19,866 nt of DNA. It comes from a virus. Its lineage: Duplodnaviria > Heunggongvirae > Uroviricota > Caudoviricetes. The notes below the pieces were generated by a model. It was given only the letters and a program-made list of their open reading frames with translations, was not told the DNA's origin and did not search any database. Position 1 is the stretch's first letter. The number at the start of each line of letters is the position of its first letter. Positions 1,869 through 19,866 of the stretch are shown piece by piece. The translations under genes were made by a program, and so were the position numbers. Location: the IMG/VR virus record IMGVR_UViG_2579778613_000002, positions 1 through 19,866 of that record; one strand, written 5' to 3'.

Positions 1869-1877
1869 ACTAGGATT

Positions 1878-2063
1878 TCAACGGCTTCCGCGTCCCTGAG
1901 TAATTCTGTTGCGGATTTGCTTCTTGCGGTGGTTTAAGCTGGATAGCTTGGCTTCTGCTTCTGATATTTGCGCATCTAGATCTTTAAGCTCAAGATCTGA
2001 AAGTCGCTGGTCAAGCAGGGTTTGATTCAACTCAATGTTGTTCAAACGTTCTTCTATGGTCAT
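1878..2063 (-). CDS. Small charged coiled-coil protein (61 aa); function unknown
   Basis: ORF-track ORF. Strong SD AAGGAG is 5-6 nt upstream of the ATG (ATAAGGAGTAATC-ATG). Sequence is heptad-like and highly charged. Lies immediately downstream of the terminator at 2077-2105. Confidence 0.55.
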   Translation of the reverse strand: MTIEERLNNIELNQTLLDQRLSDLELKDLDAQISEAEAKLSSLNHRKKQIRNRITQGRGSR

Positions 2064-2076
2064 GATTACTCCTTAT

Positions 2077-2105
2077 AAAAAACCCACCTGACGGTGGGTT
2101 TCATT
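2077..2105 (-). terminator. Rho-independent terminator (bidirectional hairpin) downstream of the lipoprotein gene
   Basis: Plus strand reads AAAAAA-CCCACC-TGAC-GGTGGG-TTTCATTTC (stem 2083-2088 / 2093-2098). On the minus strand the hairpin is followed by UUUUUUAU; on the plus strand by UUUCAUUUCUU. Confidence 0.65.
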
Positions 2106-2107
2106 TC

Positions 2108-2539: not shown

Positions 2540-2644
2540 ATTTAAAAAACCGGAAACATCCTAATGACAAACCATTCAAATGTGAAGTAGGCAAAAGATG
2601 TTTACTTTTTTCATGGTATCCTGCTCAAAACTAAGGAGGTTGGT

Positions 2645-2833
2645 GTGAAGAAAAAATTTGTAAACGTTGCAAAGTGCGCAATTTTTATATTTTTTATGAC
2701 CTTTTACGGATTTAGTGCCGGAGAAGGTTTCGATCGTGATGCCAATGCATTCAGTTTCTTTTGTCTGTCTATAGTGGTCATAATTGTATGGGTGGAATTA
2801 AAGCAAACATTGTTTCATGTGCTAAGGAAATAA
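2645..2833 (+). CDS. Small hydrophobic membrane protein (62 aa, two predicted TM helices); function unknown
   Basis: ORF-track ORF with GTG start preceded by a strong SD AAGGAGGT (2633-2640). Two hydrophobic stretches (AIFIFFMTFYGF and FFCLSIVVIIVWV). Visibly AT-rich. Convergent with gp16; no convincing promoter found. Confidence 0.5.
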   Translation: MKKKFVNVAKCAIFIFFMTFYGFSAGEGFDRDANAFSFFCLSIVVIIVWVELKQTLFHVLRK

Positions 2834-2850
2834 CCATCCATGGCATTTAG

Positions 2851-4692
2851 TCACTGCTGTGTTGCCTCAGTGGCAAGCAGCGGTCTGATGGCATTTGCAG
2901 CGTTACTTAATGCTCTTTCATAGGCTGGCGTTCCTGCTTTGGTGTTTGCCAGACGTAAGAGCGCATTCCTTGCTGCTTTGGACTCATACAAGCGCATCAT
3001 TGCACCGAAACCAGCCTCAAGCCCCATTGATACGCCAAGAGTCGCAGTTGCGCCAATCGTCCTTATCCTGTTGGCTTGCGATTGCCCCGTCTGAGTTACT
3101 ACATTTGCGGTGTCTGACCTTGCTGTTTGCTGTAGAACTTCATGAAGAGCATCAAGCTCTTTCATGTGCTTTCCAGAAAAAATAGTGTTGTAAATTTCAC
3201 CACCTGACTGAGATTTCAGCTTATTAACTTCAGTGATGAACTTGGCTGGAGAGTCACCGGCCTTTTCCGCTATTTTGCTGACGTAAGCTGCACGCATAGC
3301 ATCTTTCCCTTTATCATCCAGTGCGCTCCAGATTCGTTTCACGTCAGATGGTTTTCTGCTTAATACAACGGTATTTATAAGTTCAGGACTGGCTTCACTG
3401 CTTGCCTTGTTGAGCTTGTTGGCAATGTTTTTATTAAGCACCTTATTATAAACGTTTGCATAATCGGAATTTGCTTTAAGGTATTTTGCTGCGTCTGATG
3501 CACCGAGGTTTTTAGCAACTGCGTTACGAAGGTCTTTTGACATTGCATTCTCTACCATATTGGTAGCTGCTTTTGCCTGGTTGGGGAAGACCATAGCATC
3601 TCCCTGAACATTAGATCTAAATGCTGTTCTGTGCTGACGCAAGAGATCAAACGTAACATCCAAATCAGTTGCAGGGTTTGCTAATTCTTCACGTAGGTTA
3701 CGCAAGGATGTAAGCAGGCTTTGATTGGCAGACGTCCCAAGCCGTTCCTGTCTTGCGATCGCTGTATTCAGAGCATTCATGGTATTTGTGGTATCAACTG
3801 CGGCATTACCCATTTTATTGGTGACGTCATTGATAACAGCGCCAGCGGCATCCTTCCGCCCCCTTAACGTGGTGGTAAGAGATTTCACCACATCATCAGG
3901 GTTGTACTCACCAAAACGGTCAAAATAATTGCTTACCAGCTTACTACGCGTTGCATATTGCTCAGCTCGCTTTGAGCCTGTCCCGAGCAAAGCCCCCTCA
4001 GCATCCTGAGTAAGTCCGCGAGTGAAAGCATTTTTCGGCGGGATAACATCAGATGTCATTGGTGTCACGCCCATCGATTCTGATGTGGCAATTTTCTTCG
4101 CCACTTCTGGCGCAATATCACCTTTTATAGCCGTTATTCCACGCCCTATTCCCTTTGCTGCTGCGGAAAGAACACCCTGAGCGGCAAGGTTAACTCCGGC
4201 ATTTTTAGCTGCATTTTGTGCGAAATCGCCTTTCTGATTTGCGGCCTCTGCCAGTGATCCAATAGCCATGCTTCCTGCCGTTCCAACTCCTGGAACTAAA
4301 TACCCGCCAATTGTTTCTCCAGCTTGCGCATAAGGGTCTGTCGGTCGCTCGACAGGGCGATAAACATCATCCAAAACCTTGGGGCCGCCAAGCCCCTGGC
4401 TGATTGCATTAATCAGACTTGCGCCACCCTGCAATACGTCAAATGGTATGTTTACCAGACCACGACCAGCCTGTTCTGCAATTTGCCCTGCACTTTTACC
4501 ACCTGTGAGCCAATCACCAGCTTGTTGCATCAATGATGGTTCTTCCCGTGTTGGTGCATTATTGGCCTGATTAACTGTTTGTTGCTGAACAGCCTGACCA
4601 GCAAAATACTCATCAATGGCGGTGCCAATATCTTCGGTGCTCGTACCATCAGGAAAGGTAAATGTCTTACCGTTTGCAGTTACTTTCATCAT
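2851..4692 (-). CDS. gp16: Ejection (DNA transfer) protein, P22 gp16 homolog (613 aa)
   Basis: ORF-track ORF. Size and position (last gene of the late operon, after gp20) match P22 gene 16. Gly/Ala/Gln-rich composition typical of ejection proteins. Start overlaps the gp20 stop. Confidence 0.8.
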
Positions 4693-6104
4693 TCCACCGT
4701 AAATTGAATGCCTGATTTTGAGGTATATGACCCAACCTGATTCCGTGGTTCTCCTGAAGGTGTCGAATCTTGTGCTGGCGCTGCGTCAGTATTCATTGAC
4801 ATATACCGCTTAACGGCACTCCCCAATGATTCACCTTTTTTAACATCCAACCCCAATATCTGACCGCCATTACGCGATTGTCCTGGATTGCCATTCGCGC
4901 TCATCCACTCGGCTTTAAACTCATTAAACTGCGCGTTTCGTCGCTCAAGGTTTGCCATCGCATCAAGCCATCTTGCGACCGTCTCAGGGTTATCCATGTC
5001 AGTTGGTGCACCCTGCCGAACGATCTCAACGTCTTTATCCGTTGCGGGGCCGGGAGGTAGGAATTTAAGAACCTGACTGTTAACAAGGGCATTTTGGCGG
5101 ATGCGCAAATCACGCAATGTTGTATCGCTTCCGGTAAGTTTTGCGAACATGTTCTGTGCGTTACCGAACAAACCTGTCGTTGGTTTTTCTGCTCTGAACT
5201 GTTGAGCAAGCGCACTCATGGAATTGGCTGAGTTTGATGATGCTGTAGCATTGTTTACAGCCGTCTCGATGCCTTTTTCCATGTTTACTGACAGCTTAGG
5301 TGCTTCGCTAATCAACTGCTGAGCCTTTTCCTGTGCTTGCTGCATCTTAAACCCGAACTCTTGCTGATCCAGAGCCAAGCGTTGTGCTGCGATATTGTGT
5401 CCAGTCATTGCTGACTGATAGGAAAGGTTTTGCCCTCTCGCCTGAAGTGCTTCTCCAGCCTGATTGCTGCGGATTGTCTCTGCAAGTTTGCCTCGGTCAA
5501 TTTCACGACCAGCCATCTTGTCCTGAACAGCAAACGCCTTTTCTGGTCCAAGCGCACCGAGAGACATAGTAGTCAACATGTGTGATAGCTGCTCTGGATT
5601 ATGGATACCTGTCTGAATCATCCAGTCAGCATTCGCCCCCACGCGATTTAACCTGTCCTTGTTGTCAGTAATGAATTTACTGTAGGCTTCCGGTCCCTGA
5701 GAAAGAGCGACGTTAGCCCTTATGGCTAAATCGCCCATATCGTTGCGTTGCTGATCATTAAGACCGGAAAACGCCTGTTGTGCCTGTGCAACAAACGCTG
5801 GATTTTCCTGGGCAAACTTAAATAGTCCCGATGGATCACCAGAAGCCCATGCATCAGCGTGAACCTTATTGAACGCACTAATCGCTTTCTGTTGCTGTTC
5901 CTGATTGTAAATATCAGCAACTCCAGCCAGACCACGTAACGCGGTCAGACCAACGTTATTTGCACCTGAGCGAGCCAGTTCATTGTTTTCGCGGATCAGA
6001 CCAAGCGTTGCGTTAATGTCGCTTGCCTTTGGCGCATTCTCATTTTGCGTACCGATGCCAGCCAGAAAACCACCAGAATTAATACCCTGTTGCCACGTAG
6101 CCAT
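4689..6104 (-). CDS. gp20: Ejection protein, P22 gp20 homolog (471 aa)
   Basis: ORF-track ORF. Length and position between gp7 and gp16 match P22 gene 20. Confidence 0.8.
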
Positions 6105-6114
6105 TGATTACTCC

Positions 6115-6807
6115 TTAAAACAACGAGCCAAGCAGACCAAGACCGCCGCCGATCGCAGCCCCCCACGGAGTTGATGAACCAATTAATTTCGCAAGTCCGG
6201 CCCCAGCAATAGCACCAGACGCACCTCCGCCAATAGCAGATTGCATTGCTGATGGTCTGTTGGCATTTGCCGCTGCAAGAGCCGCACTTTGCTGCGAAAT
6301 CTGACTCATGTTGTTGGCATATGTCTGCCCGGCGTTTGCCTGACCTTGCAGTGCGCCAAGACCAATATTTGCCAGATTCTGGTAGTTGTTCATCTGACCA
6401 GATAGCCATTGCTGACCAAGCGTTGGTGCGATTGTTGCTAACTGATTACTGGTTGCGGTGGAACCCAATCCACCTGTTGCTTCCGCTGCCGCCAGACTCT
6501 GATAGCGAGCCTGACCAGCAAGATCTTTGTACTGCTGAGAGTTGTAATACTGGTTAAGCGCCTGACCTTGCCCCTCCAGAGACGATAAGTTTTCGAGGCT
6601 TCCGACATACTTATCAGCCAGAGGAGTAAACGGCTTCAGGTTGTTCATGATGGTGTTGAACTGCTGATTTTGCAGGTCTGCTGCATACTTCTGAGCTTCT
6701 GCGGCATACTTTGCGCTTTTATCAGAACTGCCACCTTTCCCACCCTTTTCAGGGCAATAAGGTTCCTCGCCGCGCAGTTTTCTGCCCAGCTTAAATGCAT
6801 ATAACAT
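6115..6807 (-). CDS. gp7: Ejection protein, P22 gp7 homolog (230 aa)
   Basis: ORF-track ORF. N-terminus MLYAFKLGRKLRGEEPYCPEKGGKGGSSDK... and the Gly-rich C-terminal tail match P22 gp7 as I recall it (229 aa). Confidence 0.8.
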   Translation of the reverse strand: MLYAFKLGRKLRGEEPYCPEKGGKGGSSDKSAKYAAEAQKYAADLQNQQFNTIMNNLKPFTPLADKYVGSLENLSSLEGQGQALNQYYNSQQYKDLAGQARYQSLAAAEATGGLGSTATSNQLATIAPTLGQQWLSGQMNNYQNLANIGLGALQGQANAGQTYANNMSQISQQSAALAAANANRPSAMQSAIGGGASGAIAGAGLAKLIGSSTPWGAAIGGGLGLLGSLF

Positions 6808-6809
6808 GG

Positions 6810-7265
6810 CTATCTCCCGTGATTCAGGAAGTCGATTAGTTCTTCGCGTGTGGCGCTGTAAAAAGTCACGTCATCCACGCCTTTAAAGTATTTCTTGATG
6901 GTTCCTACACGCTTAAGGCCAATCATTGCGCAGTACATCTGCCCGTGGCGGAATTTGCGTGCAGCGAACGATGTGACGCACTGAACGGTGGTGTTAGTCA
7001 GAATGTATCGCCAGAACGCCATCCCGATTTCCTTGCTGAATCCGCGAATCTCTGGCAGGTACATGGCGTGGCAATCAAAGGTCAAAGGCTGAATCTCCTG
7101 ATAGTAAACAATTCCGCCGAACTGCCCGTGCACGTTCACCTCAAAGTAACGGCAATCAGGTTTGTAGTCGTATCCATCACCGTTGTTGCTCCCGGCGATA
7201 ATGTCAGGGTGATTTCCGACTGCTTCGATCAGGTCAATGTTTCGCGTTGGTTTGAATGTAATCAT
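6810..7265 (-). CDS. Gene-14-position protein (151 aa); putative head/ejection-protein assembly factor
   Basis: ORF-track ORF located between the tail-needle gene and gp7, where P22 has gene 14. Assigned by synteny and size only; I do not recall the sequence well enough to confirm homology. Confidence 0.5.
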   Translation of the reverse strand: MITFKPTRNIDLIEAVGNHPDIIAGSNNGDGYDYKPDCRYFEVNVHGQFGGIVYYQEIQPLTFDCHAMYLPEIRGFSKEIGMAFWRYILTNTTVQCVTSFAARKFRHGQMYCAMIGLKRVGTIKKYFKGVDDVTFYSATREELIDFLNHGR

Positions 7266-7966
7266 CAGTCAATCAGCCCATGTAATCTAAGTGCCGTTTC
7301 AAGCGCCAGAATACGCTGCCGCGCCTGCTGCAAACCTGTAGCGAGAGATGCGACTTCGGATTGTGTGTACGTAGTGCCGACAGTGTATGACTGGTTAGCG
7401 TTGAATGAGCCAAGAAGTGGCGTACCTGTGGCTGCTGTCCACCCTGTCTGACGAGCACCAATAACCTTGGTGCCGCCGACCGAATAGGATGTTGTTACAT
7501 TGAGGGGAGATGCCAGCGATTGTGTTGCAGTGGCTGTTTTCGATACATAGTCGTCCTGTAATGCAGAAATGTTGCTCTCAGCAGTCGTAACCCGGCCATC
7601 AAGAGCGCTGACGTCAGCCTGTAAAGTGACTATTTCTCCTTCAGCCGTGGTTAGTCTGACATCCAGCTCTGCAATTGCCGCAGTATTCGCAGCAATACGG
7701 ATTTCATGGTCATCTACTTCAATGCGGAGCTGACGAATTCTTTCTTCGTGATCGACCAGAATCACATCCTGCTCATCGTTCCTGACTTGTGCGTCATAAG
7801 CGCCCTGTCCGGCCTCGTTGGCCTTGTTCGCCACGTTACCAACATCAGTACCCTGTGCGATAACGTAAAGCAGATATGACTGCGAGAAGATATTGCGTGG
7901 AAGGATTGATGTATCGAGCTGCGTCGCCTGAACAATAACAGGTGTATTGAGATTCGAATCAGCCAT
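7265..7966 (-). CDS. gp26: Tail needle protein, P22 gp26 homolog (233 aa)
   Basis: ORF-track ORF. N-terminus [43 protein letters not shown] and the central coiled-coil region (RVTTAEGEI...[17 protein letters not shown]) match P22 gp26; same length. Confidence 0.85.
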
Positions 7967-9384
7967 TACTCAATCCTTATCTGGCAGCCAGACAGAGTGA
8001 CAGGTGACTTCGTGATAACACGCAATTTGAAGCCGACATTTTTCCTGATGCGCCCAACTCGCTTCCACAAAACGCGCTTGTCGTAAACGAACGGTTCATT
8101 CTGCTCAATCATCTGCTCACGACCGTAATTGATGCCGTCAGTGGTTGCAGAGAGGAACAGGCGGTCAGCGTACTGAGCGACACCAGTCGATGATTCAACT
8201 TCCAGATCAAAACATCTGGCGTTCTCAGCTTTGAAGAGTGGTGTAAACAACAGGTGTTCTTGCTGTAGTCCATACTGGCTGCTGATATCGAACTGCAATT
8301 TGCCGGTCACGGACTCCAGCTTATCGCCGCACGTTATCTGATTGCCTTCGTAAATAAAGTCGATAGCGCGGTACACATCGTCATACAGTCCAGTTTTCAG
8401 CGCACACCATTGCGGACCATTGGTACTTGAAGATGCGTCGTACACGAGTACATGGCGCGGAAGATGGATAATCAGCAACTCATGCGCATCAAACCGCAGC
8501 GATTCCATCACACCATCAGCCAGTTCATCAGCAGTGTAGGAGCGGAGAATTTTCTCAATGCTCGCGCTGGCGATTGGTGATACCTGACCGGAGCCGATGA
8601 TGTATACAGACGGCGCACCTGTTGCCGGATTGCTGATGAACGCATAAGAATCAGCAAACGGCGTTTTGCAGTAAGTTCCGGCAATACCTTTCTGCACCAT
8701 CAATGATGGCTGTGCGACATACAAAGCGGCACCAGCGGTGGTTGCCCCCGTCAGGGAGAAATATTCAATCGTCGATGAACCAAAGCAGACGATGAAGTCT
8801 CGCCATGTTCCGATGCCGATGATGCCGTCAGGCTGAGACTCTGCACGATATTGTGCGCTGTATCGGTCAGGGTGCGATTCGTCTTCAAGGTCAGTGATAA
8901 ACCATGAATCAGTGCCGTCTTTTGACCACGCATAACGCCCACGCAAGCGCGTAATGTCACGAACCGAACCTAACTCATACTGAGTGAATCCGCTATCTGC
9001 AGGCCAGTTTGAGACGGTTTTAACCGTGCCATCATAGCGATACTCTACCAGTTGACCATTAACGCCTACAGCCTGAGATGTCCGACCATGCGCCATTGAT
9101 ACACGACCACTTCCGGCAACATCACCGACTTCGCTTTCGCCCTTATACAGCTTGCCCCCACACACGCGATATACAGCACTCTGCGCCATGTTGTACTCGA
9201 CGCCGCGCGATATACCGTTCACATCAGAACGTTTGGCAATGCCCGGGAATGAGCGAAGATATCCGCTGCTGTTAAGGATTTCTTTGGGTGTAGCCAGCAT
9301 ATTCACTGGCAGATAGTCGATGTAGTCGGCGTTTCGGAAATCTTTGCCGACACCTTTCATAAGCGGAAGTTGCTGAATCGGCAT
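7966..9384 (-). CDS. gp10: Tail hub / head completion protein, P22 gp10 homolog (472 aa)
   Basis: ORF-track ORF. Length identical to P22 gp10 and position between gp4 and gp26. Confidence 0.8.
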
Positions 9385-9885
9385 TTATTCGCCCCCGTTA
9401 TCGCAAGGTTCCTTCCGGTGGAAGTAATTCCAACCATTCCACTTCGCCAACTGGTTACCGCTACCAACAGGCATACGGTTTGGATAACCGGACTTACATT
9501 TAGCGGCTTTTGCTCTGTCCATTGCAGACAGTTTGACGAGTCGCTCTTTCCCGTATCTGGCAGTGGTTATAAGTTTTGCTGGCGCTTCCAGCGCATAATC
9601 TGGAGCAATGCGGCAGGCAAGGTTGAAAATGACGGCATTGATAGCGTTATTTGATAAACCGTGCTCATCGCCCGGTTCTGGAGCGACATCTGCATCAGCG
9701 AAAATGTAGCCAACGTTGATACCAGGTGACACATCACCGCCAAGCCATTCAGCCATCATCATTTCAAGGTCGTTGACGCCGTCTTCCATAGACTGCGGTT
9801 CTACATCGGTTAACGTGGCATTTGATGCCACACCGAGCTTACGTAATGCCGCAAGAACTAAATCACCCTTCGTTGTCAGGTTCAT
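9385..9885 (-). CDS. gp4: Tail adaptor / head completion protein, P22 gp4 homolog (166 aa)
   Basis: The ORF-track ORF (9385-9966) has a spurious N-terminal extension. Homology to P22 gp4 ([33 protein letters not shown]...) begins at the internal Met, [33 protein letters not shown], giving 166 aa as in P22. Confidence 0.8.
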
Positions 9886-10105
9886 CTGCTGCCGCCTTAG
9901 GTTTTCGACCAGGCTTTTTACGCTGTTTTTCTTCTTGCTCTGGCTCTGGCTCTGACTCTGCAACATCCTTCAGAAGATCATCAGGATGTGCAAACCAGCC
10001 AGCATCCAGATATTCCTGAAGCTCTTCGGCTTTCACGATTTCAAAGTCGTATCCAACGCCTTTCCACTTCTTCATGTTGCCATGGCGAAAGATCATGTGT
10101 GTCAT
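9863..10105 (-). CDS. Small protein with acidic Pro/Glu-rich and basic C-terminal tail (about 80 aa); function unknown
   Basis: ORF-track ORF 9863-10153. Preferred start is the ATG at 10105 ([16 protein letters not shown]...) because SD GGAGA lies 5 nt upstream; alternative starts at 10096 or 10075. Contains an in-frame (GCTCTG)x3 repeat at 9937-9960 encoding EPEPEP. Overlaps the gp4 start by about 23 nt. Confidence 0.45.
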
Positions 10106-10118
10106 GCTTGTCTCCAGA

Positions 10119-10141
10119 TAAAAAAGGGAGCCGAAGCTCCC
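10119..10141 (-). terminator. Rho-independent terminator/attenuator immediately after the coat gene
   Basis: Minus strand reads GGGAGC-UUCG-GCUCCC followed by UUUUUUAU (stem 10126-10131 / 10136-10141). It lies 9 nt downstream of the coat stop codon, inside the late operon. Confidence 0.7.
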
Positions 10142-10149
10142 TCTGGTTA

Positions 10150-11445
10150 TCACGCGGTCTGGTTAGGCAGACCAACACCAATTGCCTCTGGTCGTACAGC
10201 ACATGCTGAATACCACACAGCAATACGGCACTTACCAGACAGAGTGTTGATATCACCCTGCGTTGCGAAGATGCCGTTAACACCAATACCAGGAATGCTG
10301 AAGGAAGACGTTTTCATGCCAGCAAACAGTTCATGGGTTACCGGGATCGGCTGAGACAGCAGACGGATTGAGTCATCAGCCCAGAACACGTTAGCGGTGG
10401 TTGTTGCCACGTTCAGAACGTTTACCGGAGTGGTATCAGCAAGAGAGGTGTTTACGTTAGCGTAAGCCTTCTCTTCTTTTGTCAGTGACGCGTCATCCAG
10501 TGCAATCGGCTTCGGCGTGATTTCGATGTGAGTACCATCGATCACACGGGTGATTGAGAAAGTCGCATCATCAGTCAGCACGTTCTTCGCCATCTGAGAC
10601 AGGAATTTCACACCAGTGAAGCTGATTTTGTCGCCGCGCTTAAATCCGGTGGTGGAGGATACGGTCACCGTTGCAACACGGTTGTCGACGTTCTCTTTGT
10701 TACCATCGGTATCAAGGGTGTATGCCTGCGGCTTAAACTTCTGCGCTCCAGACACAGTTACACCAGTAGCGGTTGACTTGGTAACTGCCGGAAGTTTCGG
10801 TGAGCGAAGAATTTCATCAAAGCCAGCAATCTGACGCTGAATAGTACCGTTGCGATACGCTTCTTCAGGAACGCGCCCAAAGATGTCACCATCTACCAGG
10901 TTGCGGCCTGCTTTGCGGTAATCGTCAGGGTTCAGGAAGTAACTGATGCCCATATCGCGGTTTAGCTCACGGGAGAACATCAGGCGCTCTGCATCAGACA
11001 CAAAATCCCAGCCAGACAGGCCAGTAGATGGACCAATTGCGCGGGTATCGTGAACAACAAGTGAGCCCATTTCGGTTGCCTGTTTGGCAATCGCTGACTC
11101 AATGTTATTCGCCAGTTTTTTGGCGGATGCCTGGATGCGGCGACGGTAAGAACGCTCATCACGCAGGTCATCTGCACGAAGCTCGAAGAAATCGTTATCC
11201 GGATCGCCCATGTTGCACTTCACGGAGAGTTCCAGAATCCCGGTTGCGTTGCCAGTTAAATCCCAGCCAGTCTGGGTTGGCGCTTCCTGCTCAACAGGCA
11301 TCCACACGGTGTTGCTTGAACGCTGCATGGATTCTGCCGGAGGGGTGTATTTTGTCACTTTGGACGCCATTGGCGTCAGGTTCTGGACGGTTTCGATGAT
11401 TTCATCGATAGCGTAAGTAACTAACTGCCCTTCTTTGAGAGTCAT
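10150..11445 (-). CDS. gp5: Major coat protein, P22 gp5 homolog (431 aa)
   Basis: ORF-track ORF. Sequence (...[22 protein letters not shown]...[10 protein letters not shown]...CRIAVWY...[14 protein letters not shown]) closely matches P22 coat protein (430 aa) as recalled; downstream of scaffold. Confidence 0.9.
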
Positions 11446-11512
11446 ATATTGAATACCTTACTTTCTTTATGTGCTATACTATTGTTATATCAACATATAG
11501 CGCATTAGGGTT

Positions 11513-12034
11513 ATGAGCATGGAACTGAATGAATACTTCGAATACCGCGATGGCTCTTTGGTTTGGAAAGCCAGAAGCTCTGAATTTTTCAACAACAAAA
11601 AGAATCGCAACTATCACAACGTTTGGAATGCAAAACACGCTGGGAAAGTTGCTGGTCTTTTAGAAAGCAATGGATATATCCGCATAAGAATTAACGGCAT
11701 TAAGTGGCTAGCACACCGCATCGTATGGGTGATGTTTAACGGAGATATTCCAGAAGGCATGGAAATTGACCATATAAATGGGATTCGCCACGACAACAGA
11801 ATTGAAAATCTTCGTCTTGTGAAAAAATCAGCAAACCAAAGGAATAGAATCAAACTATCTAAAAATAACTCCAGCGGAATATCTGGAGTTTACTTTTGCA
11901 ACACGCGGAAAAGATGGATCGCTCATAAGCGACTGCTTAATGCAAGAGTGCAAAAAGTATGTTCTTCATTCGAAGAGGCGAAAGAAGTAATCAGAAAGTT
12001 TGACGAGGAAAACAACATCACGATATCGAAATAA
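11513..12034 (+). CDS. HNH homing-type endonuclease (NUMOD4-like N-terminus, HNH motif, AP2-like DNA-binding domain), inserted between scaffold and coat genes
   Basis: ORF-track ORF, antisense to the late operon. HNH motif EIDHINGIRHDNRIENLRLV; N-terminal YRDGSLVWK and downstream GISGVYF...KRWIAHK fit the NUMOD4/HNH_3/AP2 architecture of phage homing endonucleases. Start is more likely the second ATG at 11519, which has AGGG 8 nt upstream. Extended -10 TGcTATACT at 11472-11480. Its TAA stop (12032-12034) directly abuts the scaffold stop codon (12035-12037). Visibly AT-rich. Confidence 0.8.
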   Translation: MSMELNEYFEYRDGSLVWKARSSEFFNNKKNRNYHNVWNAKHAGKVAGLLESNGYIRIRINGIKWLAHRIVWVMFNGDIPEGMEIDHINGIRHDNRIENLRLVKKSANQRNRIKLSKNNSSGISGVYFCNTRKRWIAHKRLLNARVQKVCSSFEEAKEVIRKFDEENNITISK

Positions 12035-12946
12035 TTATCGAATTCCTTTATTCAGTTGCGCCTTAAGCTTGCGGTATGTCTCTACATCCCCTTTGTTTGC
12101 TGCCGCTTCCATCTGCTTTTCAATCGCAGATATATTTGCAGCAACAGCGTGTCCCTGAATGGGTTCATCAGGTAACGGGGCTTCTGAAACAGGCTTGGCT
12201 CGAGGCTTGAGAGTTAAACGTTCTGACAGTCGAGTGAGTTCAATCAGCGCGGATTGCCCGTCCATCGCCAGCAACTGGCGTGTTTTCTCAGGATTAGCAC
12301 CAAGGTGATACATGAGAGCGGCGGATTTCTCCGGGAAGAGGCGCATGATGTCGGCACCGACTGCTGGCGGCACCAGTTGCATGAATGCATCCTCTTTCTC
12401 CTGATAGTCAGGGATATTGAGCTTTTCCGCTGCGTCGTAGTGCTTACGGGCTGCCTCGACGTATTGCGCTGATTGCTGGGTGAACTCCTGAGTTTTTCGA
12501 CCCTGCTCGGCGACAGCCTGGCTTCGTGCATCCATAGCCTTGATCTGCCATTCACTGTTTGCCTGCTGGAAGGCAGCCAGTGCGCGGCTCTGGTCATAGT
12601 CGTACTTAGCCAGTGCGTCTTCGGAAAGATAATCGTTAGGGTCTGGTTGTTTTGGTAACTCAGGGCTCACCCGCAGGTGCTCCGGCAACTCTCCACGCTT
12701 AACTGCTTCCATCTGCTGCTCAAGCTCACGCTGGCGTTTGCGTTCGATGCGGCGACGGGCAAATTCAGCATTAGTTGCCGGGTCTTGTTTTGGTTTCTCA
12801 TCGTCTTTCAGGACAATCTCGAAGCCTTCTTCCTGACCTGCGTTGTCGTTGGCATTATCGACAACTAAGCCATCAGCAGATGCCGCTGCATGATTGCCGG
12901 GCAGGGTTAATTCTTCAGAAGCCTGAATGTCGGTGGTTTGGTCCAT
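12035..12946 (-). CDS. gp8: Scaffolding protein, P22 gp8 homolog (303 aa)
   Basis: ORF-track ORF. Same length as P22 gp8 and near-identical stretches (e.g. [12 protein letters not shown]..., ...[49 protein letters not shown]...). Confidence 0.85.
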
Positions 12947-12959
12947 GATTAACTCTCTC

Positions 12960-15128
12960 TTATTGAGGTGTCTCGGCTACTCCGCCGGAGGGGATTTGAA
13001 CTTGACGCATAAGATTCGCGAAATCCATGCGTTGTGAATGAGTCTGGTCTGCATCTTTAAGAAGCAGCTCAGCGTTAGCACGAGCATCTTTGCTGCGCTG
13101 TTGCTGGAATTGACCTACGAGCTTGAGGTACTCACGCAGTTCTGCCTGCTTGTCGAGGTCCATATTGTTGAAGATTTCTGCAATCTTCGCGGCGTTGAGT
13201 TGGTTTTGAGCTTCAACCTTGGCGGCTTCAACCTGAATCTGCGCCTGTTGGTTCTCTGCCTTGAGCAATTCAGCCTGACCTTGCAGAAGGATACCCTGCG
13301 CCTGAATTTGCTCTGCTGATGGCTGCTGCGGCTGCTGTTGAGCCTGCTGTACCATCTCCATCTCTTCAGGTGTTTCTGGTTTCTTCAGCCCCATCATCAC
13401 CAGTTGCTTGTTCGCGTACTCTCGCATCATCTCGACGCCTTTACCGTCAAGCAGCGTGAAGTATTGCAGCATCAGCATCTGGAACTCTGGAGTACCTTGC
13501 GGAACCTTTGTTAGCAACTCCTGAATCTCTGCGCGATTCTGTTCCTTCATACTCTGGAAGGATGGTCCAACGTCTGTATAGCACTCATAGCGACCGCGAA
13601 TGTCGTTGAGTGTGACCACATTGCCGGACTGGTAATCGACAACTTGCGCATAGAGTTGAACGTCTTTCTCGCTTCCATCTTCAAGTGTCAGCGTTACATG
13701 ACGAGGAACGTCATAAATATCGTTGACCATTGAGGCATAAATCTCGCCATCACGTCGCATTGCGGTAGCCAGGTTATCCTGAAACACGTATGTCTCAAGA
13801 TCTGCCCGCATGTTCAGTTGATTGACGGTATCGAAAGCGACCTGAGAGTTTGCCGCCTGCGCATCCACGCCAAGACTAGCCACCTCTTTCACTGCGTTGG
13901 TGGCAGCCTCAAGCATGTAAGCGTTGGCTTGCGGCACTTCAGGGTTTTCCATGTAGGAGATTGGACCAATCGGCAGGTCGTTACCGTTTTCATCGGTCCT
14001 GTTCTGCAGATAGTACGGATAGTCATCATTTCCACCGTACATGTATTCGTAGCCTTCGATTTGCTCAGGGAAGAAGGTCGGTTTCTTCTTCGGTGAACGA
14101 GCAACAATATCGGCGTTGAACGACATGATCATGTTACGAAGGCGCTGACCGTCTTTCGTCAGCCTTACCACTCCTTCGTAGCACTCCTTGTCACCAGCGA
14201 ATGACCATTCGCCATACACTGGAACGATTGGAATATGCTCTCCGGCTATCTTCTCGCGGTCTTTCAGTATCTGCGTGCAGGTGATGATCGACTTATACAC
14301 ACGCCGACGCTTCACCTTGCGCTCTGCTACCTTAATGAATCCACGATTAGCCAGGTCGTCGATGACGTCTTTGATATCCTGCTGGTAATAGCTGACCGGC
14401 TCACCTGTCAGCGGGTCGCGGTAGATGAAGACCTTCTCCTTCTTCTCTTCTACCTCGTAATACTCAGCGACGTAGACGACATCATTCGACACCCACGGGA
14501 ATAGCCATGTATCGTTAGGATTCTGGAAAGATGGCAAGGTATCCGGGTCAATACCGTAATCCTCTGCGAACTCTTTCCAGCCATTGCGCGACAAGGCGTT
14601 AATCACCGTGCAATGCTTAGCGTCGCTCTTATCCATCTGCTTGCTGTTGGCGTCCCATATAACGTGTGAGCAAGCTTCATGGATTGGCAGGCGTCGGATT
14701 ACCTGATTGTTGCTTGTTGGGTCGTTGTCTTCGTACTGCGTGACCAGACGCCATGCACCAACGCCTGACTCTATCTGCTCACGAACGCCAACGTTAACGG
14801 CAATTTTTGCCGTATTATGGCGCATATCAGTACGATACATTCCCATCAACACATCGGCAGCATCAGGATTAGCACCGTCTTTTGGTCGGAAGAGAACGTC
14901 GATAGGGTTCCGGCGCATCTCTGCGACCAGTTTCCTGACCACCGGGCGAACAACATCGAATTGTCCGCGATATTGCAGGGTGGTGTAGTTTGATAGCCAG
15001 TCATCCCATTGGCTTATGCGACTGAAGTATAAATCGTTAGAAGCTTCTGTTCTCGCCTCGTCGGAAGACATCCAATCAACATCGAATGCTTGCAGTATCT
15101 TATTTAATCGCTCTGCGTTGTCAGTCAT
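12960..15128 (-). CDS. gp1: Portal protein, P22 gp1 homolog (722 aa)
   Basis: ORF-track ORF. Strong similarity to P22 portal as recalled (e.g. [56 protein letters not shown], and the C-terminal Gln-rich barrel region). Confidence 0.9.
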
Positions 15129-15147
15129 AACTTTACCGTGATAAAAT
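15118..15147 (+). promoter_or_regulatory. Sigma70-type promoter for the antisense HNH endonuclease gene, overlapping the portal start
   Basis: -35 TTGTCA (15118-15123), 18-bp spacer, extended -10 TGaTAAAAT (15139-15147). Followed by SD AGGAG (15166-15170) 8 nt before the GTG start at 15179. Confidence 0.5.
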
Positions 15148-15178
15148 CAATGGGACAACTTCAACAGGAGATTCTATT

Positions 15179-15679
15179 GTGAGCCATCCATCTATAGAAG
15201 ATATAAGGAAAAATTTCACATACGATGCTGAAACCGGAATTTTGTACGCGGCTAATCGCACAAGGAGGACAGACCTTAACGGCAAGCCAGTTGGGTGCCA
15301 GCATGGAAACGGATACCTTGATGTAAGGCTTGGTAAAAAACTGTACTACGTGCACAGAATTTGTTTTGCGCACTACTATGGTTACTGGCCCGAAGCAGTA
15401 GATCACATAAACGGAAACCGTGCTGATAACCGCATCTGTAATCTTAGAGATGCCAATAAGCAGTTGAACGGACTAAACCGTGGCATGGATTGCGACAATT
15501 CAACTGGATACAAAGGAGTTTCCTATCGCAAGGACACAAATAACTACATGTGGCAATTTGTGGTAGAAGGCAAGAAATACACAAAAAGCGGATTCGCTAC
15601 AGCATTAGATGCATACAAGCATAAGGTAGCATTTATTAACGCTCTGAATTCCGCTGCCTCTGAATTTCTCAAGCCGTAA
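15179..15679 (+). CDS. HNH homing-type endonuclease (paralog of the 11513-12034 gene), inserted between TerL and portal genes
   Basis: ORF-track ORF with GTG start, antisense to the late operon. HNH motif AVDHINGNRADNRICNLR; same domain order as the other HNH gene (NUMOD4-like FTYDAETGILY, HNH, AP2-like GYKGVSYRK...MWQF). Ends 9 nt from the TerL stop codon. AT-rich. Confidence 0.8.
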   Translation: MSHPSIEDIRKNFTYDAETGILYAANRTRRTDLNGKPVGCQHGNGYLDVRLGKKLYYVHRICFAHYYGYWPEAVDHINGNRADNRICNLRDANKQLNGLNRGMDCDNSTGYKGVSYRKDTNNYMWQFVVEGKKYTKSGFATALDAYKHKVAFINALNSAASEFLKP

Positions 15680-15688
15680 CAACAGTAT

Positions 15689-17191
15689 CTATCTTGTTGA
15701 CCGTGCGATGGGCCTGATTGGGGCTGGTATCTTTTTCTCTTTTGGTTTTTTGATGTCGCGCATCATTTTTGCGAAGCGGCGCATCATGTATGCATAGCGA
15801 ACGGCGGATAGCACGTCGTCGTTAAGCTTGACGATTTTCCCGTTTTCATCGCGGTGATAGAGGCGGAACTCCTCAAAGAATGGCTCACAGGTGTTGAATA
15901 CTTTGAAGCGACCATCAAGCATCATGTCGCGCAATTCAGTGATTCCAGGCTCCACCGCGTTACCGCCATCAGGCCATGTCGCATGCTCCTGCAACATCAT
16001 AAAACCAGCATCTGCATACTGCCCTTTGAGCTGCTCACCGCCGCCCTTCTCGTGCTGGTTTCCGTCATGAGGCCATGCTGTTGGCACTTTATGCGCCCAT
16101 GATTTAACAGCTCCCCATGCCTGAACGGCTGTTTTTTCTTTCGCCTTCCACACGCGTGAAACGTAGATTGTGTCTGCGTCCTTATCCCACCAAAGCTGAA
16201 CCTGCGCCTGTGGGTGATCCCATCCGAAATCCATCCCGCCAATTACGTAGAAGTGATCAGGACACTCGAACGGCTGACACTTAATCGTCTCTTCCGGTAT
16301 CTGGAATATTCGCCCGCTACCCATCGTAGGAATACCGCGAGCACGCGCCTCTCTCTCATGCTCAGGATAGGATGCGATGATTTGCTCTTTCTGCTCGTCG
16401 GTGTAGTGCTCAGCGTCATAGATGGTCATGTTGACCACTTTCTGAGACTTGCTGGGATTCTTCAGGAACTTGGTAACAACGTCAGACATCCCCATCAGCG
16501 GGGTAAACGTCAGAATTGAGAATTGCCCGTATTTGTTGGTACGGGTAAGACCTTCGCCATAAATGCTGTATGGTGGCTCTTCGTCAAACCACACGCCGTG
16601 GATTGTGTCACCCTGCCAGCGAGCACGGCCTTGCGAGTATGGCTTGAAGTAGCAGATTGAAATGCCATCTTCAACGCCATCAGCCGTGTGATGCTTAACC
16701 AGAAGATGATCAACAAGGTTCGGAAAGAAAGGAGACTTCTTCCAGCTAATGATGTCTTCTTTAGGTATGGAACCGTAGCCTGGCTCATCATTCTCTTCGA
16801 TACGACCACACAGGATGCGTTGAGTCGTTTTGGTTACAGTCTCGTTTGTCTCGCCGCCAATCCAGAAGACAACAGGCTCATAGAAACGCTTACCTTTCCA
16901 CTCCCCACCATATTTACCATCAGCCGGATAGCCTTTTGTTCCCGGATAACGCCCGGTAAGGTGAAACGCGACTTCAGCAGCACCAGTAAATGACTTACCA
17001 AGCTGGTTACCAGCCATAAAACAGCGCTCTGGATAGTCATGCCCGGCGTCGATGAACTCACGCTGTTTGCTGTATGGCGTAAATTCATATAGCAGGTGTG
17101 TGTTCCGGTAGTTCTCTTCTTCTTCGAGTAGCTCGAGCAATTCTATTTGCTCTTCGTCGCTCAGGTTATCAAGAATCGCGTCCAGTTCCAC
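15689..17191 (-). CDS. gp2: Terminase large subunit, P22 gp2 homolog (500 aa)
   Basis: ORF-track ORF. N-terminus [70 protein letters not shown]... matches P22 TerL as recalled, with a Walker A-like GNQLGKS. Start overlaps the TerS 3' end. Confidence 0.9.
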
Positions 17192-17663
17192 GGTTGAATA
17201 GCTCCTTGATACGAGAGCGTCGCTTATCGCGATCTCCCTTATCAGGTGTCACGTCTTCAACTTGCGACTGCTCTTTGAGGCCCAAATCACGGGCGATAAT
17301 GTTAGCGTTGAGAAGGTCAGCGGCTGCGCCAGAGAATTTCTGGTCGTAGATGACCTGCTCTGCTCGCGTAACGACTTCAGATAAATCTTCTCGCAGGCGA
17401 TATGTGCGCCATGTTTCAAGAGTCACATCAATGAACAGAGTGAGGCCGGTAATGGTCATCGCTCGCATCTTGGCGATAGGCTCTTGTATCACTTCACCCT
17501 GATACGAGAACGCCTTCATCTCCCATAGCGGGTTAGCTTCTACCCACTCGAAGTATTCACAACAAGCAGCCCACAGCGCCTCAGGCGATTCGAATTTAGG
17601 ATTTCGCCCATGACTACTGCGGGCCTCCCAAAATCGGTTGCCCTTTGGTGCTGCCATATTCAT
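17169..17663 (-). CDS. gp3: Terminase small subunit, P22 gp3 homolog (162-164 aa)
   Basis: ORF-track ORF. Sequence (M)[51 protein letters not shown]... matches P22 gp3 as recalled. The start may be the ATG at 17657 rather than 17663. Confidence 0.85.
17369..17390 (-). other. pac: pac site (headful packaging initiation sequence) within the TerS gene
   Basis: Minus strand reads GAAGATTTATCTGAAGTCGTTA, encoding EDLSEVV of TerS. This matches the 22-bp P22 pac sequence as I recall it, at the expected place inside gene 3. Confidence 0.5.
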
Positions 17664-17692
17664 CTCACTTATTTGTTATTTCAGGTTGAGCA

Positions 17693-17935
17693 TCATGCTC
17701 CGGTAGTGAACAGGTCTAACGCTTCCTTCGATTTACGCACCGCTTCGATAGTGCGGGTCGTGATATCTGAATTAGCGCCGCCTGACTGGAAGTGAATTTT
17801 GAATAGCTCAAGCTTCAGCTCGTCAGTGCCAATGAATTGAAATGCTTCTTCTGCGGCTGCGTTCTGGTTCATGACCAGTTTGTAAATCTCTAACTGGAAT
17901 TTCTGTTCTTCAGTCATGGGAATAATCTCTGCCAT
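17693..17935 (-). CDS. Hypothetical protein (80 aa) immediately upstream of TerS
   Basis: ORF-track ORF. SD GGAG about 6 nt upstream of the ATG at 17935. Predicted helical; no recognisable motif. Confidence 0.5.
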   Translation of the reverse strand: MAEIIPMTEEQKFQLEIYKLVMNQNAAAEEAFQFIGTDELKLELFKIHFQSGGANSDITTRTIEAVRKSKEALDLFTTGA

Positions 17936-17956
17936 TGTTGGCTCCGTTTATCCGTT

Positions 17957-17982
17957 AAAAGGGATATCAGTTAAGTTATCCC
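17957..17982 (-). terminator. Weak terminator- or attenuator-like hairpin between the gp49/gp66-like gene and the 80-aa ORF
   Basis: Inverted repeat GGGATA-N10-TATCCC (17961-17982), followed on the minus strand by UUUUAACGG. A second inverted repeat AAGCCATT-N20-AATGGCTT lies at 17994-18029. Confidence 0.3.
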
Positions 17983-18038
17983 GTGTAGGGTATAAGCCAT
18001 TATCAAAGCCACTCAGTAAGGAATGGCTTTTGTAATAA

Positions 18039-18410
18039 CTACTGTTCGCTTAGCTTCTGCTTCAGCAAGTAACCTTCGAACATCCAGATTTTGTTTACAG
18101 CATTCTGCCGGGCAATCTTCCGACCAATTTCTGCATCAAAATTTTCCGGACTTGCACAGGCACTCTCTCCGGTGACGGTGAAGCCGTTGCGCAGCACCAG
18201 GACGCAGAACGTCAGCAGAGAAAGTGATTCGTGCGGCTGGTAGTTTACCTCTCCGCCAGTATGTTTCGCTTTTATGGCTTTGCCAAAGGCACCATCCTCT
18301 GCTGTGAAATATGCCTCCTGAGCAATAATTCCTTCGATATGGTCTGGCGTAACTCGCGGTGCCGTTTTGCCTTTCTCAACGATTTCTTTTTCGATTTGCT
18401 GGTCGTTCAT
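18039..18410 (-). CDS. Conserved phage protein of unknown function, possibly Gp49/Sf6-gp66 family (123 aa)
   Basis: ORF-track ORF 18039-18479. The annotated N-terminal extension starts at a TTG and overlaps the terminator at 18453-18477, so the ATG at 18410 (MNDQQIEKEIV...) is preferred. Motif ...LTFCVLVLRNGFTVTGESACASPENFDAEIGRKIARQNAVNKIWMFEGYLLKQ resembles a widespread prophage family; family name from memory only. Confidence 0.55.
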   Translation of the reverse strand: MNDQQIEKEIVEKGKTAPRVTPDHIEGIIAQEAYFTAEDGAFGKAIKAKHTGGEVNYQPHESLSLLTFCVLVLRNGFTVTGESACASPENFDAEIGRKIARQNAVNKIWMFEGYLLKQKLSEQ

Positions 18411-18452
18411 AATTATGACCTTGTTGGTTGTTAAAGATGTTTTTGTGGTGGC

Positions 18453-18477
18453 AATAAAAAAGGCCGCCTGAGCGACC
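18453..18477 (-). terminator. Rho-independent terminator downstream of the AT-rich 80-aa ORF
   Basis: Minus strand reads GGUCGC-UCAG-GCGGCC (one G-U pair) followed by UUUUUUAUU (complement of 18453-18461). Confidence 0.6.
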
Positions 18478-18494
18478 AATTTAATAATTAATTA

Positions 18495-18737
18495 TCAATA
18501 ATGTGGGAATTGGCTACTATTTTGCAAGATAACCCAAGATGGGCGAAACAAGTCAAAAACATTGATGCTTAACAGGGCTTCATTTATTGATTTTTTTTCA
18601 TCCGTAGAAACTCCGCGTCCTGCATTTGACATTACAAGCTGACCATTAACTATTTCACTACATTGTTTTACATAACTACCTGGCGGTATTGATTGAAAGT
18701 TACATGTACCATTTATTATTTTATCAATTTCACTCAT
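18495..18737 (-). CDS. AT-rich moron ORF (80 aa); function unknown
   Basis: ORF-track ORF. SD GAGG 5 nt upstream of the ATG. Strikingly AT-rich compared with neighbours, and followed by its own terminator. Protein has no motif I recognise. Confidence 0.5.
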   Translation of the reverse strand: MSEIDKIINGTCNFQSIPPGSYVKQCSEIVNGQLVMSNAGRGVSTDEKKSINEALLSINVFDLFRPSWVILQNSSQFPHY

Positions 18738-19176
18738 ATCAACCTCGTCTAGTTGTTCGTCATAGATTCAGTGGCTGGCGGTGACGATTCCGCTTTTCGG
18801 GAGCTACCCTAGCCACTGCTTGATTCTATCCGATGTCTTTCCATCAGTCCGCCACCACAAAGAATCTTTTTTGCCATAAGGCAGGAGGTTCATCTTTCAG
18901 TGGCTGCCAGTGTTATTTCCCCGCTTTCTGGCTTGGGTTGTTTCGCTGTACTGCCGTAACTGGTTACCAAGAATAAATTTTGGTTTCATTATCAAGCCCA
19001 TCCGTAGATAGGCTTTGTAATGAACTGGCTCTTATCTCAACGCAGCCCCTTACCGCGCGCCATATGCTTAACTTCAAGCATCAGCAATGAGATGTTAAAT
19101 CTGGATTCACTCCAGAAGTGATCACCACCCTGTCTACAGAGCCAGATGTGAAGGATGATGAGTAAAATTATCGCTA

Positions 19177-19653
19177 TCATCGAAGGCATTGCGTCCTGAT
19201 GTATTCCTGAAGCGTTCTCAGTGCTGTTTGGTCGCGGATAATTCCGTCCCGGACACCGAGAACGTTTCGTCCAGCAACTGGAGAGAGTTCGACGGTGGCA
19301 TCATTGCCCATGCCGGAGGCGCCGGAGGCGCCGGAGGTTTCGGCTGAGGATGGCACAGGGCATTTTCCTTTGACGAGCACCCTGCCACCATTATCAAGCT
19401 TGCGCCGAAGAGCATCATTTTCAGCTTTCGCATCAGCTAACTCCTTCGTGTATTTAGCATCGAGTGCATCAGCAGCACGCTGGCGTTGCTGCATGTCAGT
19501 AATGGTGGCGGTCGCCTGCTTCAGCTCACTGACTTTTTTATCACGCTGTTCTTTGTAGGCGATGGCGTTATCACGGTAATGATTAACAGCCCATGACAGG
19601 CAGACGATGATGCAGATAACCAGAGCGGAGATAATCGCGGTTACTCTACTCAT
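19177..19653 (-). CDS. Rz: Rz-like inner-membrane spanin (i-spanin), P22 gene 15 homolog
   Basis: ORF-track ORF 19177-19665 begins at a GTG. The ATG at 19653 ([23 protein letters not shown]...) is preferred: SD GGGGG lies 5 nt upstream and it overlaps the lysozyme stop (ATGA). N-terminal TM helix followed by a charged coiled-coil periplasmic domain. Confidence 0.85.
19218..19433 (-). CDS. Rz1: Rz1-like outer-membrane lipoprotein spanin (o-spanin), embedded in Rz in a different reading frame
   Basis: ORF-track ORF lying entirely within Rz. [19 protein letters not shown] lipoprotein signal with lipobox, followed by a proline-rich segment [14 protein letters not shown] typical of Rz1. Confidence 0.8.
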
Positions 19654-19865
19654 TGTTGCCCCCACAAACAGACTTCACGCTCAATCTCACGGCGAGTCAT
19701 CAGCCCTTTCCATTGCTTACCGCCAGCGTATGTCCAGCGCCGTAGCTGATCACATGCGCCTTTGATATCGCCCTGGTTTATTTTGCGAAGAAGCGTCGAT
19801 GTTCTGAAATTTCCAGCACCAACGTTGTAAACGAACGAGTAAAGAGCGCCGCGCGTTGTTTCCGG
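19650..19865 (-). CDS. gp19: Phage lysozyme (endolysin), C-terminal 71 codons; 5' end lies beyond the window end, P22 gp19 homolog
   Basis: Hand translation of the minus strand from the window edge gives [71 protein letters not shown], a T4-lysozyme-like C-terminus matching P22 lysozyme as recalled. Stop TGA overlaps the Rz ATG. Confidence 0.8.
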
Positions 19866-19866
19866 T

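Follow-up and report, generated by a model that had tools for sequence, protein, structure and literature searches.

Gene order at the locus and identity of the RNA

The stretch of DNA analyzed here, called the window in what follows, comprises the 19,866 nucleotides (nt) of positions 1 to 19,866 of the IMG/VR virus record IMGVR_UViG_2579778613_000002 (Caudoviricetes). Between the lysis genes Rz/Rz1 and an open reading frame (ORF) of 80 amino acids (aa), it shows a gap of about 440 bp (18738-19176), in which a first-pass annotation had seen no credible ORF. The gap is best explained as a mosaic junction among the late genes of a P22-like phage (Lederbergvirus). Read along the minus strand, which is the strand of every gene in this part of the window, it holds a 50-aa gene, a conserved non-coding spacer and the int-alpA RNA (Rfam RF02996), the latter as the leader of an inserted moron cassette. 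The gap exists because the site is a mosaic junction at which cassettes have been exchanged. The int-alpA element and its possible role in the translation of the gene that follows it are the main subject of this work. The principal components of the locus are the following:

19177-19653, minus strand: Rz, with Rz1 nested within it
19037-19189, minus strand: 50-aa ORF with a hydrophobic N-terminus, its start overlapping the 3′ end of Rz
18829-18984, minus strand: conserved non-coding spacer segment, with a predicted long hairpin at ~18852-18903 and a predicted small hairpin at 18830-18847
18757-18819, minus strand: int-alpA RNA (Rfam RF02996) with a three-way junction, scoring 41.8 bits (gathering score 35.8) at E 9.2e-6 for the whole window
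18495-18737, minus strand: 80-aa cargo ORF of the moron, encoding an orphan protein, ATG at 18735-18737

The closest relatives of the window are Lederbergvirus phages and prophages of Escherichia coli. The sar antisense RNA (RF00262) is found at 795-862 on the plus strand (85.7 bits). As a marker of the immI (ant/arc/mnt) region it confirms a P22-like phage. The other minus-strand genes of the region are a DUF2560 gene and those of the small and large terminase subunits.

The absence of a credible ORF from the gap was an error, as the frame at 19037-19189 on the minus strand matches phrog_11822 over its full length (50/50 residues, E 1e-36) and is annotated as a coding sequence in related phages and E. 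coli prophages. AGGA is located 4-5 nt before its ATG, the record of phage Kapi1 gives a predicted signal peptide for its homologue, and the gene may be translationally coupled to Rz. Since this ORF occupies the rest of the gap, the truly non-coding stretch is only ~300 bp (18738-19036). The description of the gap as unusually large and empty was therefore overstated: one third of it is a real small gene, and ~300 bp of non-coding sequence stay.

The search with Rfam covariance models, which had been suggested as a check in the first pass, detected int-alpA above the gathering score of the family. The three-way junction is seen both in the Rfam consensus alignment and in the minimum free energy (MFE) fold, and its stems are:

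18812-18818 with 18769-18775, plus the pair U18811-A18776, minus strand: P1
18807-18809 with 18799-18801, minus strand: P2 (GGG/CCC), in the Rfam alignment and in the MFE fold
18790-18793 with 18778-18781, minus strand: P3 (GCGG/CCGC), with the 8-nt loop AAUCGUCA at 18782-18789

P1 is the 8-bp inverted repeat CAGTGGCT/AGCCACTG that had been noticed at 18769-18776 and 18811-18818. The repeat is present as described, with a spacing of 34 nt and two short GC stems enclosed, and these smaller stems are P2 and P3 of int-alpA. In the Rfam consensus the junction nucleotides are C-UA-G, C-GAAAA-G and C-CU-G, and J31 of the window reads CA instead of CU. A covariance model of our own scores the element at 67.4 bits and finds one copy in the window. 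Int-alpA is matched in every relative with this leader (prophages and one phage, BIS08P22) and in none without it. The leader variant of the window occurs in 51 of the 5426 complete E. coli genomes and is annotated in none of them.

By every model-based criterion, the window element belongs to the known Rfam family, outside the int/alpA context. Elsewhere, the order that gave the family its name consists of a tRNA, a P4-type integrase, the RNA, an ORF of 270-350 aa and alpA, all on one strand. The copy of the window is not near int or alpA; it is placed in the late operon, between the small ORF after Rz/Rz1 and the 80-aa ORF. Proximity to int and alpA is a habit of context and lies outside the Rfam model. 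As another identity, Proteo-phage-1 (RF03044) was rejected, with 16.8 bits against a gathering score of 42; the alignment covers just the unpaired 3′ tail, and neither stem is present. In P22 no match to Proteo-phage-1 was found.

Homologous loci were collected by scanning viral contigs, and genomes at one per species, with a sequence pattern, which gave ~120 loci from each source, and all 18 of the 18 diverse loci that were re-scanned exceed the Rfam gathering score. In 35 sequences with different P3 loops, 93.9% of the P1/P2 cells pair versus 67.6% in shuffles, and double-sided changes amount to 146 where 48.7 are expected. The observed covariation was reached in 0 of 500 shuffles, and a shift of register abolishes the signal. 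The earlier suggestion of a structured non-coding RNA consequently holds for the inverted-repeat part of the gap, that is, for P1 on the minus strand, which covaries together with P2 in these homologues. Alignment with related sequences, also proposed in the first pass, shows compensatory changes in the int-alpA stems and none in the spacer hairpins, and a remnant ORF was not found.

Placement of the leader and complementarity of the P3 loop

The position of int-alpA relative to coding sequences is highly regular. After 88 of the 94 unique instances, a Shine-Dalgarno sequence (SD) follows on the same strand together with the start of an ORF no shorter than 50 aa, as compared with 11.7% at random positions, and the start is located at a median distance of 42 nt after P3. 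In the window, the 3′ end of the element is 20 nt upstream of the ATG of the 80-aa ORF. The sequence around this interval contains three further features:

18757-18762, minus strand: box 1 (UGACGA), which pairs with the P3 loop sequence UCGUCA at -7.5 kcal/mol
18745-18749, minus strand: box 2 (GACGA), complementary to the P3 loop at -7.1 kcal/mol and overlapping the SD GAGG (18743-18746)
18740-18755, minus strand: hairpin P4 (CAACU/GGUUG), which presents box 2 and ends 2 nt before the ATG

Throughout the family, box 1 is found 5-15 nt after P1 and box 2 is found 20-30 nt after P1, on the SD. The Rfam consensus has a 3′ tail, AgGG, that is able to pair with CCuU of the P3 loop, and its counterpart is present in the window.

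This complementarity is specific to each locus. The duplex of the loop with box 1 of its own tail has -7.7 kcal/mol versus -3.4 with the tails of other loci (z -13), and the respective values for box 2 are -8.0 and -5.2 kcal/mol (z -9.7). The observed mean loop-tail energies were reached in 0 of 20000 permutations. Among 79 distinct loops, 67 pair with box 2 over at least 5 bp, versus 35 with permuted loops, and both boxes are paired to this extent in 41, versus 10.8 with permuted loops (maximum 18 in 300 permutations). The median end of the box 2 pairing is 8 nt upstream of the start codon, namely on the SD. Box 2 is usually placed in the loop or in the 3′ arm of a P4 of 4-7 bp, which ends 0-5 nt before the start. 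P4 was found in 27 of 36 loci, and its support is moderate because the background is 43%. The motif, its placement, the covariation of its stems and the locus-specific complementarity of its loop to box 1 and to the SD are direct observations.

Judged from the sequences, int-alpA would be a cis-acting leader that controls the translation of the downstream gene, a reading to which we give a slight preference. The leader would fold as a three-way junction (P1, P2 and P3) with near-invariant junction nucleotides, and the 8-nt loop of P3 would pair either with box 1, a decoy placed 6 nt after P1, or with box 2 on the SD. As the two pairings would be mutually exclusive and nearly equal in energy, the access of the ribosome to the cargo would depend on the partner of the loop. 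The leader may then toggle between an SD-free and an SD-captured state and in this way set the translation of the cargo, with a signal, a protein or the ribosome likely acting at the conserved junction. That the loop-box pairings regulate translation, in which direction they would do so, and what input the conserved junction would read, are matters that we infer.

Several points weigh against such a control of translation. Box 1 is paired over at least 5 bp in just 44 of the 79 loops, the loop-box pairings are short (5-8 bp, ~-7 kcal/mol), and the background of P4 is high. The counts of G-U versus A-C in the stems (18 vs 13) do not settle the strand by themselves. The pattern of the scan fixed CTAG, CGAAAAGCGG and CCGCC; since these letters were fixed, the invariance of the junction and of P3 within our own set is circular. 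Independent of the pattern in this respect are only the Rfam consensus and one divergent copy, in the locus labeled L013 (labels of this form denote the loci compared), where a P3 of GCAC/GUGC indicates that P3 is able to covary. The type that the Rfam curators gave to the family is small RNA (sRNA), and the promoter consensus scan of the window did not report the -10-like hexamer TAGAAT that is described below. Finally, the cargo is functionally very mixed. Among 71 non-redundant downstream proteins compared with Pfam, ~12 are HNH-type nucleases, 6 belong to DUF1376 and 3 to Dam; further families are DUF551, DUF6387, Rha, Endonuclease VII, GIY-YIG, ParB_N and methyltransferases, and many proteins are without a family. 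The coherent downstream function that marks a riboswitch is not seen in this set, which speaks against a classical metabolite riboswitch.

The C4 antisense RNA of phages P1 and P7 controls icd/ant, and the CI RNA belongs to the satellite P4. If int-alpA were a processed antisense RNA of this type, the junction would be excised (e.g., by RNase P, RNase E or tRNA processing) and would, as a stable small RNA, pair with both boxes in cis as well as in trans, so blocking the ribosome-binding site (RBS) of the cargo in an element-specific, “immunity-like” manner. The topology matches that of C4, with a structured RNA before the target RBS, a second complementary copy and covariation of loop and target. 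The sRNA typing by Rfam agrees with it, the family is common beside P4-type integrases, and the copies of L013 and L221 begin ~3 nt after a tRNA gene, so that tRNA processing would set their 5′ end. On the contrary, the Rfam C4 family has no match in either 18600-19250 or 17800-19866, even with E values up to 10 allowed, a tRNA-like gene was rejected since ARAGORN finds none, and no conserved 3′ end or terminator is placed between P1 and box 1. Targets are seen for one loop only; the loop of P2 is conserved, and its sequence follows none of the targets. In the P22-like lineage, the same loop and boxes are found ahead of many cargo ORFs, which indicates no diversifying specificity. We therefore consider an antisense RNA unlikely, and the cis-acting leader is retained as the preferred reading.

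The 5′ end of the RNA bears on a further explanation. Upstream of P1, one candidate signal is located in the window:

18823-18828, minus strand: -10-like hexamer TAGAAT, ending 4 nt before P1, with a weak -35 (CGGACT) at 17 nt

From its sequence, TAGAAT is a candidate promoter of the moron. Hexamers of the -10 type that end 2-8 nt before P1 are present in 17 of 36 loci versus 13.5% in control windows, and this enrichment, together with the copies that abut a tRNA gene, suggests that P1 is at the 5′ end of the mature RNA. Late-operon read-through in the window must also cross the int-alpA element. The same two observations are in accordance with a 5′-terminal stabilizer or processing module, in which the paired 5′ end would shield the moron mRNA from 5′-end-dependent decay and the loop-tail pairing would just compact the leader. 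For such a protection, however, a plain hairpin would suffice, and the module would explain neither the near-invariant junction nucleotides of the Rfam consensus nor the locus-specific complementarity to the SD; it is a quite improbable account of the family.

Some loci deserve a separate description. In L134, L145, L149, L163 and L191, a tRNA gene is located 1.3-2.6 kb from the int-alpA match on the same strand, and these distances fit integrative islands with tRNA, integrase and RNA in this order at their edge. In L013 (8795-9310), a divergent copy ahead of a 78-aa ORF is followed by a second copy ahead of a 313-aa ORF, and in L198, a metagenome-assembled genome of Planctomycetota (1648-2095), two copies 411 nt apart have each their own ORF. 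The gut-phage contig of the L013 copies also carries a type II hammerhead ribozyme at 4576-4645 on the minus strand (49.1 bits).

Cassette exchange, the conserved spacer and the direct repeat

A lambdoid moron is a promoter, an ORF and a terminator inserted between conserved genes. Breakpoints in the window were determined by pairwise comparison with eight relatives, and besides the leader and the 80-aa ORF the following features take part in the mosaic:

18441-18477, minus strand: conserved 3′ end of the cassette, a 37-nt block common to cassettes with different ORFs
18462-18477, minus strand: stem of a terminator-like hairpin from the terminator scan, with a T-run that continues downstream
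18034-18440, minus strand: gp49/Sf6-gp66-like gene (PF13876), a second independent cassette
18985-19024, minus strand: imperfect 18-bp hairpin directly 3′ of the 50-aa ORF, an inverted repeat seen in the MFE fold and in the consensus fold

The cassette 18441-18826 consists of the leader, the 80-aa ORF and the terminator and is missing from close relatives. Phage 611R6 is without roughly 18425-18831 (leader, 80-aa ORF and terminator), and its spacer is joined to 18424. Kapi1 is without 18016-18826, which includes the moron and the adjacent gp49/66-like cassette, and its spacer is joined to 18015. As the junctions of 611R6 and Kapi1 differ, two insertions are distinguished, 18441-18826 and 18034-18440. 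611R6 carries the gp49/Sf6-gp66-like cassette, and Kapi1 and the prophages L003-L006 lack it.

The insertion of the moron between genes that are adjacent in 611R6 and Kapi1, its terminator-like site at 18462-18477 and its -10-like element at the 5′ edge resemble the lambdoid morons; upstream, there is just TAGAAT with its weak -35, which the scan did not report. A structured, conserved leader common to many cargo ORFs is, on the other hand, not part of their classical description. L006 and L130 keep the first 90 nt of the cassette (18734/18740 onward) and the last 37 nt (18441-18477), and behind the same leader other ORFs, that is, a DUF551 gene or an 89-aa ORF, replace the 80-aa ORF. The anatomy is that of a moron with conserved ends and an exchangeable cargo. 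The 80-aa protein has no match in Pfam, PHROG or PADLOC, and only 6 clusters of homologues were found, of which the three with a source name are from E. coli. The 50-aa and gp49-like proteins also have no match in PADLOC.

Mosaic breakpoints located exactly at the leader/ORF and ORF/terminator borders raise the question of another catalytic or DNA-level role, either as a self-cleaving ribozyme or as a site for single-stranded DNA or recombination at the cassette borders, with leader and terminator as homology for swapping. The strong conservation of the junction is in line with such a role, as are the two loci (L013 and L198) with two copies few hundred nt apart, each before its own ORF, and the Hammerhead_II of L013; small ribozymes are abundant in phage genomes. 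Yet no Rfam ribozyme family matches the int-alpA site, the fixed orientation and distance to the start codon and the pairing with the SD indicate a function at the level of the mRNA, and recombination homology is a possible side effect of any conserved leader. A role of this kind is in our opinion very unlikely, and the leader acting on translation is still the reading preferred.

The non-coding spacer (18827-19022) immediately follows rha in P22 and Rz in ST64T, and is also found in HK620, ES18, Kapi1 and HK106-type lambdoid phages. It is highly conserved among 12 aligned phages and prophages with the exception of indels of 1-2 nt, which would break any reading frame, and the spacer is for this reason regarded as non-coding. 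The fold of the spacer is more stable than those of shuffled versions (z -4.1). In the hairpin 18985-19024, the changes are one-sided and keep the pairing of the consensus fold (C-G to U-G), and no double-sided (compensatory) changes were found in the spacer hairpins of the aligned relatives. Covariation support is missing because the divergence is too low, and the spacer hairpins remain predicted structures. A 3′ hairpin, a processing site and a recombination linker are candidates for the role of the spacer. Three small ORFs of the spacer, namely a minus-strand one of 29 aa, a plus-strand one of 47 aa and a GTG frame of 19 codons that follows AGGAGG, were rejected, as their frames are disrupted by indels or have lost their starts in relatives; the 29-aa ORF has, in addition, no usable SD.

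The AGGAGG to which the first pass had drawn attention is present at 18883-18888 on the plus strand. Its lack of a start codon is meaningless, since it is located on the strand opposite to every gene of the region. It lies on the opposite strand of the predicted long hairpin at ~18852-18903, which also holds the second copy of the 11-bp direct repeat.

This repeat, TTCAGTGGCTG, has indeed exact copies at 18767-18777 and 18896-18906. The repeat family reaches 17 nt at 88% identity, and with at most 1 mismatch the 11-mer has 3 matches in the window versus 0.43 expected, a number reached in 1 of 200 shuffles. The second copy belongs to the spacer that is kept in phages without the int-alpA element. 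Among 48 int-alpA loci, an upstream copy of the 3′ strand of P1 was found in this lineage only, and such an “anti-P1” copy was rejected as a general feature of the family, being missing outside this lineage. A decayed second int-alpA copy at ~18896-18960 was similarly rejected as the source of the repeat, as our own covariance model finds a single copy in the window. Most relatives read CAGTAAGTGGGG at the site where the window reads CAGAAAGCGGGG, so that the extra resemblance of the spacer copy to int-alpA is specific to the window. The repeat is regarded as real and lineage-specific, and no explanation tried so far accounts for it. The exact identity of the 11-mer depends on the A at J31 (CCAGCC) of this leader variant; sister variants with CCUGCC have 9 nt in common with the spacer.

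Positions 19014-19022 are the insertion point of cassettes in relatives, that is, of rha (L005, L007 and P22), a KilA-N gene (L130), a 96-aa ORF (L004) and a 63-aa ORF (L008), and the window carries none of them. These genes, and an 11-mer that is commoner than chance predicts, could be taken in favor of the remaining options of the first-pass annotation, the remnant of a decayed gene or a protein-binding site array. Searches by tblastn with five cassette proteins of the relatives (Rha, KilA-N and the 96-aa and 63-aa proteins included) gave, however, only chance matches in the gap (E > 5), and the spacer is non-coding in all relatives, equally so in the phages having rha, P22 among them. The repeat has two copies only, of which one is a strand of an RNA stem and the other is located in a spacer hairpin, and its upstream copy is restricted to this lineage. 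Remnant and array have both become hardly credible.

Two further observations refer to the spacer in other phages. In P22 (L129, 712-1544), ~830 bp separate rha from orf80, with a single annotated ORF of 25 codons; this interval opens with the same spacer as 18827-18957 of the window. Directly after the spacer in P22, Kapi1 and ST64T, a hairpin GAGGYCAUUYAAUGAGUGGYCUC is followed by GAYAAUGGC (L002 ~2450-2497, L129 ~1365-1412 and L131 ~1455-1500), and a similar hairpin with TGTGATAATGTC stands ahead of the int-alpA copy of L011 (upstream of 1026). This post-spacer hairpin may be a shared promoter or processing element.

Known systems and the breadth of the family

The int-alpA motif reportedly comes from the supplement of Weinberg et al. 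2017 (PMC5737381), whose main text is silent on it. No literature on its function was found; in the literature searched, “int-alpA” appears in two lists only and “RF02996” nowhere. The window element shares with RF02996 the stems P1, P2 and P3, the junction nucleotides C-UA-G, GAAAA and C(U/A), the box in the 3′ tail and the setting in phages and mobile elements. It differs in its location in a P22-like late region, between lysis and terminase genes and before an orphan 80-aa ORF. Moreover, Rfam types the family as sRNA, whereas the statistics of context obtained here indicate a 5′ leader.

Compared with C4 and CI, int-alpA is likewise a small structured RNA with a terminal closing stem, just upstream of its target and in the same transcript. 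The loop can pair with the ribosome-binding region of the gene that follows and with another copy of that sequence, and loop and targets covary between elements. In contrast, int-alpA has one targeting loop instead of two, both of its targets are downstream, the Rfam C4 model does not match it, and its cargo is unrelated to immunity.

The riboswitches preQ1-II and SAM-II/SAM-V resemble it in the pairing of a hairpin loop with the SD region, which forms a pseudoknot beside a conserved core, and in the position of the element 20-40 nt before the start codon. The genes downstream of int-alpA, however, share no function, and a decoy box and an SD-presenting hairpin are added.

The genes mobE, I-TevI and the lysozyme gene e of phage T4 are a third likeness, being accessory phage genes, often for HNH or GIY-YIG nucleases, with an RBS masked by RNA structure; the HNH share of the cargo (~12 of the 71 proteins) is a parallel to these nuclease genes. 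The T4 structures are simple local hairpins relieved by a transcription start within the hairpin, whereas in int-alpA a conserved three-way junction would act at a distance via its loop. By analogy, the function of int-alpA would be most like that of C4/icd-ant of P1/P7 or of the SD-capturing pseudoknot riboswitches, and the tests for membership place it in neither group.

Verified int-alpA matches are distributed over at least eight phyla, namely Pseudomonadota, Acidobacteriota, Planctomycetota, Bacteroidota, Chloroflexota, Nitrospirota, Methylomirabilota and Eisenbacteria. A much wider proposal, put forward only tentatively and with a rather low expectation that it is correct, is that int-alpA, instead of being an sRNA of enterobacteria, could be a portable sensor-and-switch leader of phages, prophages and integrative satellites across many phyla. 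The core of the junction would read a universal cellular signal or factor, as an orphan riboswitch or as a protein- or ribosome-binding fold, and would be linked to three elements free to evolve (the loop, the decoy box and the SD box), which together would gate any cargo, often DNA-cutting or DNA-modifying enzymes.

For the window, the result turns a seemingly odd gap into ordinary phage architecture, made up of one small gene, a mosaic junction and a moron whose leader is structured. For the family, an orphan RNA becomes a case in which translational control in mobile elements can be tested directly, because the start codon is nearly always at a fixed distance, the P3 loop covaries with the decoy box and the SD, and at least eight phyla are represented. 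What may be new is the architecture of the leader and how widely the family is spread. If the junction binds a ligand or a host factor, a new regulatory input common to many phages and satellites would be at hand, and the int-alpA leader could also be of use in synthetic gene control, as a compact module.

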